A DNA stretch of 64,000 nt from Harriotta raleighana (taxonomy: Eukaryota), in the NCBI GenBank assembly GCA_050575255.1, contig JBNZDD010013649.1, positions 1,752,487 through 1,816,486 on the forward strand, read 5' to 3'. The translations under genes were made by a program, and so were the position numbers. The notes below the pieces were generated by a model. That model was not told the origin of the DNA, searched no databases, and saw nothing but the letters and a program-made list of their open reading frames with translations. Of the stretch, positions 4,132 to 45,570 are shown piece after piece (position 1 is the stretch's first letter; every line of letters starts with the position of its first letter).

Positions 4132-4288
4132 GATAATAATAATAATCCTTGCATTTGATATAGTACTTTTCACGTCTTCTAGATGTTTCAAAGCGCTTCA
4201 CGGAATATACTGTAAAGTGAATTGACTGTATATTTGTGGGCAAAATGTGGTAGTCAATTGTGCACAGCGCACTGTCCCACAAACAGTT
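4132..4288 (-). mobile_element. SINE 3' half, inverted relative to 3647-3963
   Basis: ataataataataatccttgcatttgatatag... is the reverse complement of the SINE tail and body. Confidence 0.9.
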
Positions 4289-7273: not shown

Positions 7274-7652
7274 TAATAATAATAATCCTTGCATTGATAT
7301 AGCACTTTGTCATGTCTTCGGGACTTCTCAAAGCTCTTCACAGAATATATTGTGAAGTGAAGTAAATTGACTATATTTTGTGGGCAAAACGTAGTTGTAG
7401 CCAATTGCTTAAGCAGTGTCCCACAAACATTCGTGGATTGAGTGATCAAATTATTCTTTATTGAAGGTATCATTCCCACCGGAGAAGGATCCACCAATCG
7501 ACTAACAACCAGATTCCTTCTTACTGCTAGGTAAACAGAGGAATGTGGTGGTGTAAGGAAACTTGGCCAGGAAGTTTTGCCCTGTCTGGGAATCCAACCT
7601 AGATCCTCTTGCTTGCGAGGCAAGTACTCTTAACACTAAGCTACAGGATTCC
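7274..7652 (-). mobile_element. Full-length tRNA-derived SINE, long subfamily
   Basis: Same head and tail as 3647-3963 plus an extra internal module (ctagcagtaag..gaa..tggttgttagtcgatt), also seen at about 24290 and 61105. Confidence 0.9.
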
Positions 7653-8764
7653 AATTATTTTCAAACAAAACTGGACAGATTTTGAAGAGAAGTAATAATA
7701 AGAATTAAATAATAATCCTTACATTTGATAGAGTACCGTTCATATCGGGAGGAATATCAAAAGGTTATGAGGAGTTGGGTAGGAGAGGAGGATTACATTG
7801 ACTCAGGTGGAAAAAGCACCCGTGGAGACTTGGACCCAATGGCAGGACTGTGTTGTAACATTCTTTGTGTCTTAAGTCCCAAGGCTTTGTTGCAGAGGTA
7901 CATTACGATGCATTCCTCAGTTGATGGCACTAGTGGCCCTCAGTGAGTTATGGAATAGCTACATCAGTGCTAAGATGCTGGCATTTCCATCCAAAACACC
8001 GATCCATCCCATGTTTTTCTGCGGATATTCTCTGCAGTTCCGGACCACCACAATTCATAGAGCAGACAAACCTGGTACCTGTGAAATTATTCAGCCCTGC
8101 ATATGTAATCATATCTTACAGTTACATCCATCGATTAGTTCACTACTACAGACAGAAGTGATCCGTCCAAAGGGACAAGCTGAAAATTGTATTTGATCTC
8201 AAAGCTTAGCTGTAATTCAAGAACAGAACTAGGAAAGAATCTCCTTTGATTCTGATACTTCCCAATTTCCTGCCTATCTCTCTCTCTGTGAAGGAGAAGG
8301 AGGGGGGCAAGTAGACCCCAGAGCAGCTCGCAGGAGCATTCTTTCAACAAGCCCTTGTAGAACAGAGGAATAATTCTGTCCAGTTAAAAAAAATTCAGCA
8401 GCCCTTTCAGTTAGTCAAAACAAAAACAGAAAATACTGTGTTTTGATCTCTTCACATTTTAAATTATGCAACCTGTGCTGCACCATTCCTGCCGATGTAA
8501 GCAGAGCTTTAAAGGGCAATCCACGTACTATTACAGATTCATACTAGTACATTTTAGAACAGGCTGATAACAGTAGGAGTGTATGTAACAAGTCTCCTTG
8601 CCCTGTATGCACATTCCAGGCTGACACATGCAGCCTGCTTTGTGCTTCTGCACAGGATGCATTTGGTATGTTGCCTCTGGGGACACCCTTGTGTAAATAC
8701 AAGTAGATTTTTTTTACTGTATAATATTGGGGAGCGAGGATTTTAATCAACTTTCAGATTAGAC

Positions 8765-8933
8765 AAAACACAAAATACTGCAGATGCTGGAAATCTGAAA
8801 CAAAAACAGAAGTTGCTGGGGAACCTCAGCAGATCAGGCAGCATCCATGGAGAAAGGAAAGTGAGTCAACGTTTCGGGTCCACGACCCTTTGTCAGAACT
8901 GAGTTTTCCCAGCAACTTCTGTTTTTGCTTCAG
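8765..8933 (-). mobile_element. Penelope-type terminal-repeat element with fold-back and a degenerate minimal hammerhead ribozyme
   Basis: 35-bp inverted arms at 8795-8829 and 8899-8933 (32/35 match); the minus strand of 8864-8900 reads AGUU CUGACAA A GGGUC GUG GACCC GAAA CG UU GACU. Confidence 0.7.
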
Positions 8934-8991
8934 CTTAGAACCTTGTATAGATTGAAGATTTAGATTTGCATTAGTTCTGAATATTGTAAGT

Positions 8992-9100
8992 ATAATAATA
9001 ATAATACTTGCATTTGATATAACGCTTTTTACATCTTTCTCGTCTCAAAGCGCTTCACAGAATATACTGTAAAGTGAATTGACTTTATATTTGTGGGCAA
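8992..9100 (-). mobile_element. SINE 3' fragment
   Basis: Reverse complement of the SINE tail. Confidence 0.85.
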
Positions 9101-10469
9101 CTGTATAAATCTGCAGTAACAAAGCCTTTTGCCTGCAAAGGTTGAACATTATTACCAACGTATAAAATGTTTCCCCTAATGCGATCTTCATCCTTTGTGA
9201 GTCATTATGTGCATTGTCGGCCTTTTCTTGCCATTTGGATTTCTACTATTAATACTGCAATTAAAAATGTTTTTAAAATTCCTGCCGGCCCACTCTCTCC
9301 TTTCACAGTCCCACCTCATTATCCTTGCTGGCCTTCAGTGCCCAAAGGTTGTCAACTTTGACTCAGTTCGAATCCTGTAAACAGAATAGCTTATTCGCTA
9401 TCTTCTGTTTGTGGTATCATCTTTTTTGGCACCAAAAAAAGCCACTAAATGTCAGAACAGCTTTGTCATTACACTTAGCTGGAAATTCTGTCTCCCTGAA
9501 CTGGATCTTCCTCAGTATCAGACCGCCTAGCCAGGTTTTCAATGTCAAGCTTTCAGGACATGGGTAAACTATGGAGGGAATCTAGGAACAGAAGTCAACC
9601 ATTCTGTCTTATCATTTTGTTATATCCCGGCAGATTTCTTAGTTCCATTTCCCTACTTTTTCTCCAGATCACTTGCTTTGCAATTATATTATCCATCTGC
9701 TTTAGATCCTTTGAATAGAGGGATGGGTTGATGCCTGTCTAATCATTCATTACTTTAAACAGAGACGAGAGATTCTGTACAGTCGCAGTTTGTGATTGTT
9801 TCCCAAAATGTTTTAAAACACTTTATTCTTTGATGTAATAATCGACATAACGTAAACCACTTCTTTCTCTACCTCCCTCATCTCCACCAGAGTTCAGCTG
9901 CTAACATGCTTTGCTCCCAGTGCTCCTTCCATTGTATTGTAAACGAGCCAGCTTTCCTCCGTGGCCTGTTGAGCCCTTTTTACTTGTTCCATTTTGAAGA
10001 CAAATACAAAAAGCGCAATAAATCATCCATTACAATCAAAATGTCACATTCAGTCAACAGTGGAACAAAAGATGAGGTTCTGTACACAATGGAACCATCA
10101 ACATGGTGACCAGACACACGTTGACCCCTGCAAGAGGCAGCCAACAGGCCTGGGGAGAAAAGACCTGCATCCATCAGGAAAATAATCCGTGAAATATTTT
10201 ATCCAGAATATGTTTTTAATTTATTCATTTTGAAAACCTTTATTCTTTACAATCAGTTCTCCGAACACCCGAGTTTTTAAAGAGTCTAAAAAGTACCGAC
10301 CAGAGAGATAAAAAATATATTACGGAGCAGGGTTGGAGCAAGTATTTACATGGATCGGGAATCTATTTCATTATTTTCTGCAAAAAAAGCACCTCAGTCT
10401 TCAAGGAGCTGTTACTGCATAAATTGCCTCTGTAAAACTCTGTGAAGAGAAATGTTAATGGGCTGCATT

Positions 10470-16864: not shown

Positions 16865-17050
16865 GGAGTCTTGTAGTGTATCCTGGAGTAATCCCTTCAA
16901 TGATAATGAGAAGAAGGATTTGGTCACTCATTCTTCAACTATTTGTGGGTCATTGCTGTGTGCAGTTCACTTTACCATGTATCCTGTGAAGTGCTTAAGA
17001 TATCTCAATGACGTGGTAAAGAGCTATATCATATGCAAGAATTATTATTA
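16865..17050 (+). mobile_element. Internally deleted SINE
   Basis: Head remnant ggagtcttgtag, partial body and tail ...atatcatatgcaagaattattatta. Confidence 0.7.
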
Positions 17051-17052
17051 TC

Positions 17053-17181
17053 TTTTCAGACGAAGGGTCATACACCCGAAACGTTGACTCACTTTTCCTT
17101 TCGTCATAGATGCTGCCTGACCTGCCAAGGCTCCTAGCAATCTGTTTTTGTTTCAGATTTCCAGCATCTGCATTGCATTTT
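17053..17181 (+). mobile_element. Second copy of the Penelope-type hammerhead element
   Basis: CAGACGA A GGGTC ATA CACCC GAAA CGTT GACT followed by gatgctgcctgacctg...tttcagatttccagcatctgca; homologous to the reverse complement of 8765-8900. Confidence 0.72.
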
Positions 17182-19069
17182 TGCAAGGATTATTATATTA
17201 TTATTATTCAGCTGTAATCTGAACTGAATTTTATTACAGCGAATTCGACTTTAGCATATTTCATTTTAACCTTAAGAGTTTCATAAAGTTATAAGAAAGG
17301 TGAGTGCACATCAGATGAAACCCACACATGTGCTCTCTCTCATGAGGCCCTGCTTTCCCTGAACGCGGTCCCTGATGAGGGTCATTCAGAGCAGATATAA
17401 TAACTGCAGTTTCAGGAAGCGATGTCCTGTAGCTTCTATAGTAGCACTGGGAAATAAATCAGCCTGTCACATCTAGACAGATAAAACAGGTTAGATTCTT
17501 TAATCGATTTACTTTAGTTAGTTGAATACAGTGTTTACATTGCCATATATCTGTAGCACAAAACCCCCATAGGCTCTGGGTATTTATCAAGTCCCCCCTG
17601 TTTGTGTGACCATTAGTGTAAGTGAAAGGGAATGAATCCAGGTCTGCTGTTACATGGCCATAAAGTGATTTATTCAAAACCAGAAAAGAATGTTGATTTA
17701 TTTTCTCAACCCCCTGAGAAGGCAGACAGACTCCTCTCGAACAGCAAGGGGTGCTTTTCAGCCACTCAACAGGAGGTCCATGAGACTTGCCCACCTATTT
17801 TGCTTCCCACCCAGTAGGAAGTGTTTGCCCTCCACAGGATGTCTCCTCTTTCTCTCTCTCTAATCCTCGCCCCCCCATGTCTGAACTCACAACTACCTGG
17901 GAAACTCTGGATTCAAATCAGAGTTAATTGGCTACTGTCAGAAATGAATTTTGAAACATGAGGTGATCATTTAATTTATATTTACAGGCTCCTTTTAACA
18001 ATTTTAAGAAAAAAATGAAAGATTATAATAATCCTTGTATACAATCCAAAACTTTTCATGTCAGGAGGATGTTAATGCAGGCTATCTTCCCTCCGGTTGG
18101 ATTACAAAGGTCAAAGCAACCAAAGTCGTCACTTCCATTTATTTTCAGGAGATTTTATTTTCAGCCGGACAATGAGCGACCATCTCTCAGGCTCAGAGGC
18201 ATCTCCGAGACAGTTAGGCTGCGGATGTAGCTTTTTTTGCAACCCTTGTAGCAGATTTTCATCAGTAATTTTGATGCTCCCGGCTTCAGCGAACCACAGG
18301 AAACAAAAAGTGGGAATGATGGCATAGCTTTACAGTGTTGCTATCCGGACGGACTCCCAATTCTGTTCTGACCATGAACCATTGTGACATTCCTTTAAAG
18401 ACAATTAAAGCCTTTTTTCTCTGTACTTGCGTACAGCTCCATTCAGTGCATTACCCATTATTTCACTGTTGAGTCTTGACAGTGATTGTCATCAGGTTAT
18501 TCCACCACAGTCACCACAGAGAGCCTCACCCGATGATAACAATAATAATAATAATCATCGTATACTGTACTAATGCTTGCATTTGATACAGCAACTTGTC
18601 AAGACGTCTCGTAGCGCTTCACAGAATACATTGTAAAGTGGAGTGACTGTGTATTTGGGCTGAAGTGTCTGTCTGCCTTGCAAGAAATTCAGGGTAGTGA
18701 TCTGAAGCAGGAACTCTGACTCTAACCCAGGCTGCTTGCTTGAAGCCAACTGCTCAAACCCAATTGAGATCAGCCAGAGTAGTGAGCTGATCTCTGTTGG
18801 GGTTCTGTGTTTTGCTAAGCTGCATTGATCGGGCTGGGATTTTTAACTCTCTGGGCCTCAATGGAGCATTTTGTTTTAAATTTTCCAGTTGCAGATGTGA
18901 GAAGAGTCAATGTCGAGAAAATCTCCAAACAGTGCACCCATTTCACCACCAGCAAAGGCCACACAGGCTGCTGTTACCTTCAGATGAAAGGTCGAGACCT
19001 ATCTTGGGAAGTCTCTGACCTTGGATGTATCAAAGGCAAGCAGCAGAGAAGTAGCTGCGCTGTGCTATA

Positions 19070-22169: not shown

Positions 22170-22405
22170 AATAATCCCTCCAAAAAACCCAACAATAATA
22201 AAAATTGGTCATTTCAATCCTCGACTGTTTGTGGGACACGGCTGTGCGCAATTGGCTGTCGCATTTTGCCCACAAATATACAGTCAATTCACTTTACAGT
22301 ATATTCTGTGAAGCACTTTGAGACATTTAGAAGACTTGAAACCACCATATCAATAATAATAATAATCCTTGCATTTGATATAGCGCTTTTCACATCTTAT
22401 CAGTC
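22170..22405. mobile_element. SINE body (+, 22170-22345) joined to an inverted SINE tail (-, 22352-22405)
   Basis: Body matches 3647-3963; followed immediately by aataataatccttgcatttgatatagcgc. Confidence 0.85.
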
Positions 22406-38715: not shown

Positions 38716-39013
38716 TAATAATAAATAATAATAATCCTTGCATTTGATATAGGGCTTTTCACATCTAGACGTCGCAAAGCACTTCACAGAATATGATGTA
38801 AAATAAATTGACTGTATATATGTGGGCAAAATATGGTAGCTCATTGCGCACAGCAGTGTTCTACAAACAGTCGTGGATTGAAATAACCAATTATTATTGT
38901 TGTTTGAGGGATGTGGATTAAGGAAATTTACCCAAGTTTTTGCCCTGCCTGGAATCGAACCCAGATCTCTCGCTTGTAAGGCGAGTGCTCTAACCACTGA
39001 GCTACAGGATTCC
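38716..39013 (-). mobile_element. Full-length SINE, short subfamily
   Basis: Reverse-complement head ggaatcctgtagctcagtggttagagcactcgccttacaagcgagagatctgggttcgattcc. Confidence 0.92.
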
Positions 39014-42195: not shown

Positions 42196-42432
42196 AACCA
42201 TGAGCAAGTTTCCTTCTTCCACAAACCTGATAATAATCCCACATACAAAAAAAAATTGGTTTCTTAATCCACAACTGTTTGTGGGACACTGCTGTGCGCA
42301 ATTAGCTGCTGTGTTTCGCCTACAACATATACAGTTAATTCACTTTACAATATATTCTGTGAAGCACTTTGAGACATCTAGAAGATGTGAAAAGCACTAC
42401 AGTATATCAAATGCAAGGACTTATTATTATCA
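42196..42432 (+). mobile_element. Headless SINE
   Basis: gcaagtttccttcttccac through atcaaatgcaaggacttattattat. Confidence 0.88.
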
Positions 42433-42499
42433 TCACTTCCTGGTGTCAGTTACAATTCCTGCGCATGGCAGGCATAGTACAGGAAGTGACATCAGTGGC

Positions 42500-42803
42500 A
42501 ATAATAATAATAATCCTTGCATTTGATATAGAGCTTTTCACATCTTCTAGATATCCCAAAGCGCTTCACAGAATATACTGTAAAGTGAATTAACTGTATA
42601 TGTTGTAGGTGAAACGCGACAGCCAATTGCGCACAACAGTGTCCCACAAACGGTCATAATAATAAATAATAATGGATTGAAATGACCAATTTTTTTTTTT
42701 TTTTTTTTTTGGAGAGATTATTATTAGGAGTGTGAAGTAAGGAAACTTGTCCAAAGTTTCGCCTTAACTTGCCTGGATTCGAAGGCAGATCTCACGCTTG
42801 CAA
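42500..42803 (-). mobile_element. SINE, inverted relative to 42196-42432
   Basis: Reverse-complement tail, body and partial head (ttgcaagcgtgagatctgccttcgaatccaggc). Confidence 0.9.
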
Positions 42804-44329: not shown

Positions 44330-45570
44330 CAGAATCATACAGCACCGAAGGAGGCCATTTGTCCATCGTGTCTGCACCAGCTATGAAAGAACTGTCCAAC
44401 TCAATCCCACCGGCCCACTTTCTCTCCATATCCCTGCAATCTTATCCTCCCCAAATACCCATCTCTTAAAAGATGTTATTTAATTGGCTTCCACTAGCCT
44501 TTCAGGTACTGCATTGCTCAGATCTAAACAACTCCCTGGGTGAATTTTTTTTCCTAACCTCCCCTTTGTTTCTTTCAACAACTATCTTAAATCAGTGTCT
44601 TCGGGTTACTGACCCACACGCCAGTGGAAACAGTTTTTCCCGGTTCAACCTATCAAATCCCCTCATTATCTTGAAAACCTCCATTAAATTCCCTCTTAAT
44701 CTTCTCTGATCTGGGGAGAATAATCCTAGTTTCACTAACCTCTCCTCATAACTAATGTCCTTCGTTCCCTGGTAGCATCCTTGTAGATCTCCTTTGTACC
44801 TTCTCAAATGCCTTAACATGTTTCCTAAAGTGTTGCTCAGAACTGAACACAGTACTCCAATGGAGGCCTAACCAGCATTTTATAAATATTCATCATAGTC
44901 TCCTGACTTTTGCACTCTATGACTCTATTTATAAATCTTAGTATCCTGTATGCTTTTTTAATAGCTTTGTCTACCTGTCCTGCCACCTTCAGAGATTTAC
45001 TTCTGATAATAATAATCCTCGCATTTTGAAATAGAGCTTTTCATGTCTTCTAGACGTCTCAAAGTGCTTCACAGAATATACTGTAAAGTGAATTGACTGT
45101 ATATCTGTGGACAAAACGTGGCATACAATTCTGCACAGCAGTGTCCCACAAACAGTCGTGAATTGAAATGATCAATTTATTATAGTTTTTTTTGACGGAT
45201 TATTATTGGGCATGTGGAGTAAGAAAACTTGTCCATGGTTTCGCCCTGATCTGCCTAGATTCGAAACACAGGTCTCACGCTTGTAAGGCGAGTGCTCTAA
45301 CCACTGAGCTATATGGATTCCCAGGTCTCCTGAGTTCATTTACCCCCTTTGAAATTTTACTATCTAGCTTATACTGCCTCTCCTCATTCTTCCTACCAAA
45401 AAACAACACTTCACATTTTTGCACATTAACCGTCATCTGCCAAGTATCTGTCCATTTTACCAATCTGTCTAAATTGTCTTGGGACTCGGGTGCTAATCCT
45501 GCTCACCATTTATTACTTTTCCTAGTTTAGTATATCTGCAAAGTTGAAAATTGTGCTCCCTACATTCAGG
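44330..45570 (-). mobile_element. CR1 LINE 3' portion interrupted by a SINE
   Basis: WTDTWQMTVNVQKCEVL; YEERLVKLGLFS..RRLRGNLMEVFKIMRGFD..LFPL..VTRRH; CR1 3' UTR (aatggcctccttcggtgctgtatgattct). Confidence 0.9.
45005..45321 (-). mobile_element. Full-length SINE nested in CR1
   Basis: Complete head to (ATT)n tail on the minus strand; CR1 homology continues on both sides. Confidence 0.92.

Follow-up and report, generated by a model that had tools for sequence, protein, structure and literature searches.

What element carries the hammerhead-like ribozyme motif on the minus strand of this DNA, and does ribozyme cleavage set the ends of that element's copies? We followed the motif from the window, the whole 64,000-nt stretch of Harriotta raleighana DNA analysed here, into the 1.1-Gb genome, in which copy counts from exact strings and patterns are lower bounds. 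We conclude with high confidence that the motif is a minimal hammerhead in the pLTR of a Neptune-type Penelope-like element (PLE), and that its two insertions in the window are short, mutated and likely inactive.

Hammerhead motif and its two insertions

The motif, assigned from sequence and folding and numbered by the standard hammerhead convention, has the following parts.

8864..8900, minus strand: minimal type I hammerhead motif
8897-8900/8864-8867, minus strand: helix I, 4 bp, with a G-U pair adjoining the cut
8890-8896, minus strand: hammerhead core, with G8>A at 8891
8889, minus strand: bulged A
8876-8888, minus strand: helix II
8872-8875, minus strand: GAAA
8868-8873, minus strand: palindrome AACGTT
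between 8868 and 8867, minus strand: predicted cut, after GAAACGUU

Element coordinates count from ribozyme C3 as 0, which places the predicted cut between +28 and +29. A sequence-only reading had taken minus-strand positions 8864-8900 for a minimal type I hammerhead, and the sequence matches as written (AGUU-CUGACAA-A-GGGUC-GUG-GACCC-GAAA-CG-UU-GACU): a helix II closed by G10.1-C11.1, a bulge at 9/10.1, a short helix I and a palindromic 15.2-16.2 are all present. The Rfam hammerhead models that the same reading had suggested as a check gave no match in the window at E<=1 and none to the intact copy L286 at E<=10, and the folding energy of the motif is unremarkable (z -0.14 to -1.0), so the case for a hammerhead rests on motif, position and copy number. 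We considered whether the inversion junction had produced helix I of the window copy by accident; long copies with the same AGTT rule this out.

The motif lies in the first of two stubs, whose features are as follows.

8796..8901, minus strand: very probable pLTR of a Neptune-type element, from the main family 5′ start (-5/-4) to about +100
8764..8795, minus strand: tail of about 32 nt, which in longer copies continues into the 5′ leader and ORF start
8899..8936, plus strand: inverted, shorter second arm of 38 nt, covering pLTR +67..+104, no tail
17055..17172, plus strand: second, more diverged stub, 86% identical to the majority, starting at -2, tail shortened
17034..17048, plus strand: likely target-site duplication on the left of the second stub, 15 nt with one mismatch to the right copy, by eye
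17182..17196, plus strand: likely target-site duplication on the right of the second stub, by eye

The first insertion is 173 nt long and consists of a 137-nt minus-strand arm (8764-8901) joined head to head, with a 3-nt overlap, to the 38-nt inverted arm (8899-8936). Across pLTR and tail the minus-strand copy is 96% identical to the family majority, and fold prediction in its own context gives a long hairpin with the inverted arm in which helix II is absent. The second copy, at 17057 on the plus strand, reads CAGACGA and is 86% identical to the first over 121 nt; it carries U4>A, is without the 5′ strand of helix I (TTTT for AGTT) and has one broken helix II pair, and its left duplication sits in the AT-rich end of another abundant repeat. 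Neither window copy keeps the full core, and with G8>A in the first and U4>A in the second both are likely dead, as the sequence-only reading had expected.

Judged by its tRNA-like head (27-52 bits with Rfam tRNA) and its (ATT)n end, the abundant repeat is likely a tRNA-derived SINE. Its pieces in the window include 7580-7647, 32102-32169, 38944-39008 and 45250-45318, with about 20 related ones (for example, 4133-4268, 22183-22407 and 42230-42654), and the second hammerhead stub sits within the end of one copy. About 130 nt past that stub, 17276-17305 on the plus strand could, by eye, be a micro-exon, with a consensus GTGAGT donor right after it. A Pfam scan of 47 of the 151 window ORFs gave no match.

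Source element

The source element runs in the order pLTR, tail, short leader, ORF, 3′ UTR of about 270 nt and pLTR, and its ORF contains an RT with YIDD, a CxxxxCxxC linker and GIY-YIG. Close copies of the motif in part extend upstream into a GIY-YIG frame, and all 30 GIY-YIG loci, a set that includes the query itself and two duplicates, are followed downstream by the same-strand hammerhead repeat, in most cases at a distance of about 270 nt. The CxxxxCxxC pattern is kept in 23 of 29 linker translations, the endonuclease region has a CxxC and downstream histidines (CCHH-type), and an RT followed by a C-terminal GIY-YIG is seen in long, broken copies; the longest element frame is 469 aa and no intact full-length ORF was found. 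Fragments from this genome reach Pfam E values of 9e-5 for RVT_1 and 3e-4 for GIY-YIG, both under the curated cut-offs; the homologue P0001 passes the Pfam GIY-YIG cut-off, and sharks and rays hold named relatives with RT and GIY-YIG. A 5′ pLTR and tail precede an ATG-type start in seven of seven translated loci (one has ATA), and a pLTR with hammerhead at both element ends, an inverted 5′ copy and a tail are all present. This putative assignment, whose clade name comes from features of the element, matches an endonuclease-bearing (EN+) PLE with a Neptune/Nematis-type linker finger. The long RT/GIY-YIG-coding copies terminate in the same 136 nt as the stubs, and the window copy is 95-96% identical to two of them (L006 and L010), which argues against the distinct short non-autonomous family that had been proposed from the window. 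A metagenome search yielded two distant GIY-YIG loci among 222 candidates, both without the hammerhead pattern.

Several further observations concern the wider family. At seven loci (L252, L254-L256, L258, L266 and L268) the last part of the leader is a pyrimidine tract with TAG, three bases before the ATG; it resembles a 3′ splice site, and a clear donor was not seen. Two shark/ray NCBI gene models, 'divergent protein kinase domain 1C isoform X2' and 'mucin-2 isoform X2' (P0005 and P0006), include the element's endonuclease region and are probably annotation read-through into PLE copies. A second subfamily shows the same multi-kilobase inverted arrangement of ORF pieces at L140, L141/L142, L145, L146, L150 and L151, and also at L026, L027 and L220, together with an identical nested junction of pLTR, 154 nt and pLTR; it seems that this palindromic composite spread as a unit. 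The flank of L143 holds, at 8084-9232 on the plus strand, a putative integrase-like frame of some LTR-type element.

Copy number, consensus and decay

The family is abundant. An exact 32-mer with the intact core has at least 310 genomic copies and its G8>A version at least 57, with no matches to the reversed control of either; a looser intact-core pattern has at least 1,809 matches in the genome versus 20 for its reversed control, and a 26-mer further 3′ in the pLTR has at least 1,853. The majority sequence from 378 distinct matches has the full hammerhead core. The complete core CUGACGA...GAAA..UH, inferred in the sequence-only reading from the two local copies, is therefore present both in this majority and in the exact copies, and the general form CUGANGA...GAAA..UH is found in the family and not in the two window copies.

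We analysed ends and decay in a sample anchored on the 3′ pLTR (70 loci from the first 100 of the 1,853 matches), which, with 2 of 77 left out, gave 75 distinct copies, whose ends were mapped against the majority reference. In this sample among the matches listed, G8>A occurs in 5 of 42 copies and the guanines of the other CpGs are changed in 9/47, 11/49 (G12) and 11/64; all four CpGs decay alike, catalytic G8 and G12 included, consistent with the earlier attribution of G8>A to CpG decay. Core, helices and palindrome are all kept in 9 of the 75 copies from the matches listed. Non-CpG change amounts to 12/336 in the core versus 284/3,622 in the rest of the pLTR, a comparison confounded by base content, and selection on the source elements may explain the lower figure. 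Covariation in helices I and II, to which the sequence-only reading had looked, was not seen: double changes at helix pairs do not exceed independence among 266 ungapped copies within the one family, a weak test because neutral copies of closely related sources can hardly show any.

Ends of copies and the start-site pattern

Among the matches listed, 3′ ends fall at +130..+132 in 33 of 75 copies and at +96..+101 in 22 of 75, and 47 of 75 copies have a head-to-head partner, both arms being counted where both hold the anchor. The 5′ ends in the same listed matches gather at -5..+3 (31/75), with none (0/75) at +28..+30; the others lie upstream of -10 (12/75), at -9 (one copy) or at +4..+45 (31/75), and 14/75 start at +19..+28, adjoining helix II. 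Start density in this sample among the matches listed is about 7.8% per base at -5..+3 versus 0.7% upstream and 1% downstream. Genome-wide, the native C at -5 is absent in 717 copies (-4 junctions), 585 copies have C at -5 and not at -6, a start at -5 like that of the window copy, and 827 copies read through CCCC. That starts fall at the first bases of the ribozyme and not at its cut site is likely because the copies were made from uncut RNA beginning there.

Internally deleted copies converge on the same point. Of 20 loci selected because they hold the ORF start, 7 carry internal deletions, and all seven rejoin at -4/-3 from seven different ORF breakpoints, which looks like an RT reaching -4 and then jumping. 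Most of these copies (L280-L283, L285, L287 and L293) have two direct hammerheads a few hundred nucleotides apart, and it is possible that such two-hammerhead copies are raw material for retrozymes.

Junctions at this start also carry an excess of G. The base before the -4 junction is G in 377 of 717 copies, where about 28% is expected, and a G precedes the -5 junction in 10 of the first 100 matches listed (hand count); in the local data a junction G occurs in 19/34 copies versus 15/75 at other starts. For 30 G-junction loci, a lone extra G lies next to a target duplication in two, the G is inside the duplication in two, and our script detected no target duplication in 26. By hand count 23 of the 30 read TG and 14 read TTG, which also fits a jump to the TTTTG end of the tail. 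Whether it arose from a cap or from a tail jump, the junction pattern points to a probable RNA 5′ end at -5/-4. Position -4 is the A of CCAGTTC, an Initiator-like sequence that fits the Initiator consensus YYANWYY, and the CCCC before the -5/-4 start is not a hammerhead NUH site. The Penelope pLTR is described as having an internal TATA-less promoter with an Initiator (PMC2377424), and an extra G at full-length L1 junctions has been attributed to the cap (PMC11702581). Taken as a trace of the template, starts at the ribozyme head with an upstream G suggest run-off from uncleaved, probably capped RNA.

Proposed route of insertion

Biochemistry of PAc, the Poseidon element of Anolis carolinensis (PMC11167929), together with the ends mapped in this genome leads us to propose the following route. 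Pol II transcription would start at the head of helix I to give a probably capped RNA; the element protein would bind this RNA uncleaved and cut target DNA; and reverse transcription would prime inside the uncleaved RNA at either of two tail boundaries, +100 or +132. The cDNA would then run off at -5/-4, where the 5′ end of the RNA coincides with the first base of helix I. Joined to the target it would leave a solo stub, joined to a cDNA primed from the other DNA end it would leave a head-to-head pair like 8764-8936, and by jumping elsewhere in the RNA it would yield long or internally deleted copies. The window insertion itself would combine a tail-primed cDNA that reached -5 with a short cDNA, joined over CAG microhomology. 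PAc in vitro initiates internally at both tail ends and extends both DNA strands, as reported in PMC11167929, which would account for the two 3′ end classes and the inverted-pLTR pattern, and unprocessed RNA is there the dominant substrate.

In the source transcript the ribozyme likely does cut, though weakly and only as a dimer or with protein, and its cut likely does not set the ends of insertions. Nearest-neighbour energies predict that in the intact monomer the core is paired to the palindrome (-10.8 versus -8.2 kcal/mol) and that a 6-bp AACGUU duplex beats the active register (-17.1 versus -14.5). A ribozyme predicted to be this weak agrees with the low activity described for minimal hammerheads (min-HHR; PMC4209133) and with the protein-assisted cleavage of PAc. 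In its full form, the proposal is that the genome is a fossil record of the in vivo template, a capped, uncleaved Pol II RNA starting at the first base of helix I, where Initiator and ribozyme overlap; that cDNA synthesis by the Neptune RT, strong-stop-like, extends from the tail to the cap; and that the success or failure of the next jump decides between full, deleted, solo and palindromic copies. We judge this proposal evenly poised between right and wrong. If it is true, the hammerhead is dispensable for setting insertion ends in vivo.

Alternative explanations

The most durable alternative, which we regard as unlikely though well short of negligible, accepts the same element but has hammerhead cleavage and RNA circularization drive its cycle, as in the Cervera and De la Pena model, with the pile of starts at -5..+3 arising from RT stalling at the ribozyme fold or from a 3′ splice site (CCCCAG/TT). 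The intact core in the family majority speaks for it, as do the low non-CpG change in the core (12/336 versus 284/3,622, confounded by base content), the 14/75 starts next to helix II among the matches listed, the partial tandems L276 and L288, and the D. virilis Penelope intron that is described as ending at the helix I 5′ end (PMC4209133). Set against these, no listed copy of the 75 starts at +28..+30, the -4..-2 starts share no common upstream exon and some adjoin a target duplication, RT stalling predicts no G excess at -5, and catalytic mutants are reported to leave PAc insertion in vitro unaffected (PMC11167929). A ligated circle leaves no trace at +29, so cleavage and circularization are only weakened as an explanation.

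Far less probable, in our estimate, is that the 136-nt unit is a self-propagating non-autonomous element (a non-LTR retrozyme or SINE-like unit), which would be transcribed, cleaved as a dimer and then mobilized in trans with the help of the Neptune protein. Short copies that share a sharp 5′ end do abound (717 at -4 and 585 at -5 junctions), internally deleted copies in part have two direct hammerheads 209-765 nt apart, and retrozymes are described as deriving from PLE pLTRs and reported in one chondrichthyan (bioRxiv 10.64898/2026.07.22.740005). However, a sample of a few hundred loci contains 45 same-strand neighbour pairs within 800 nt and no head-to-tail array: the pairs are single-N assembly overlaps, partial tandems, nested inversions, internal deletions, split matches and separate insertions. 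Six larger regions comprise three duplications that are 99-100% identical including flanks, the rest being inverted or nested copies, so the search for tandem arrangements that the sequence-only reading had called for found none in either set. Nor do the seven different breakpoints of the deleted copies or the 95-96% identity of stubs to ORF-linked copies favour an independent unit, and the PAc template is reported to need 172 nt of ORF (PMC11167929), which a stub without ORF sequence would presumably lack. Partition folds of three natural two-hammerhead copies show no inter-copy helix III, which says nothing against a dimer because the program cannot represent the nested form.

Many tandem duplications in this genome are 99-100% identical (for example, L061, L062, L064, L101, L320 and L326-L328), with a single N or a gap at the joint in some; they resemble overlaps left by assembly, and tandem counts in this genome will come out too high because of them.

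Weakest of all, and by a shade the least probable, is that the pattern is a vestige or coincidence of promoter or RT-binding sequence that never cleaves: the lack of covariation and of an Rfam match, the ordinary folding energy and the predicted locking of the monomer core and favoured AACGUU register would fit, but core, bulge before helix II, G10.1-C11.1 and palindrome are all as published for min-HHR (PMC4209133), the place within the pLTR is as expected, and the PAc hammerhead, silent alone, is reported to cut once protein is added (PMC11167929).

Comparison with known systems

As a ribozyme-bearing element the family is ordinary, a chondrichthyan example of a kind described in 2014. PLEs are stated in general to carry minimal hammerheads (PMC6155905), and min-HHR are described in metazoan PLE pLTRs, including fish Xena, Poseidon and Neptune (PMC4209133); hammerheads in Neptune pLTRs were thus already on record when the family was put forward as the best candidate in the window for an under-described system. 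The motif shares with min-HHR, as set out in PMC4209133, type I architecture without helix III, a palindromic 15.2-16.2, a bulge before helix II, G10.1-C11.1 and a 4-bp helix I, and its copies are likewise mostly single and truncated, some on opposite strands 100-700 bp apart. It differs in its 5-bp helix II, in a single family accounting for almost every one of the first 100 listed among at least 1,809 core matches, and in its cartilaginous-fish host, the word 'shark' being absent from the main text and searchable supplements of PMC4209133.

With Neptune-clade EN+ PLEs as characterized in PMC8557442 the element has in common an RT, a CX2-5CXXC linker and, at the C terminus, a GIY-YIG with CCHH-type residues, as well as a pLTR, an inverted 5′ copy, a 30-40 nt tail at one end and heavy 5′ truncation; it differs in that an intact ORF was not found here, and the likeness is one of features. 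Nematis too is described as having the linker finger (PMC8557442). Like PAc in the account of PMC11167929, the family has two 3′ end classes one tail apart and none at the hammerhead cut site. It belongs to another clade, its ATG lies about 170 nt downstream whereas the PAc ORF begins inside the hammerhead, and a fixed 5′ run-off point or extra G was not found in the accessible text of PMC11167929. Non-LTR retrozymes, as presented in bioRxiv 10.64898/2026.07.22.740005, share the type I hammerhead, derivation from pLTRs and monomers scattered genome-wide. They are defined there by tandem hammerhead-bearing units, none of which was seen in our sample, and the chondrichthyan retrozyme families of that preprint may include this Neptune-type family.

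A literature search, covering few subscription journals and not Repbase, found no account of a Neptune hammerhead in chondrichthyans and none of a cap-like G at the junctions of PLEs. The end map, in which stubs often begin at the ribozyme head and not at the cut site, is a useful addition to two published positions: a 2014 model in which the PLE hammerhead cuts and circularizes the template (PMC4209133), and 2024 in vitro work in which it is dispensable (PMC11167929). Head starts in thousands of copies, 0/75 starts at the cut site among the matches listed and the G excess together form an in vivo argument for dispensability, and the start pattern predicts a single-base transcription start.
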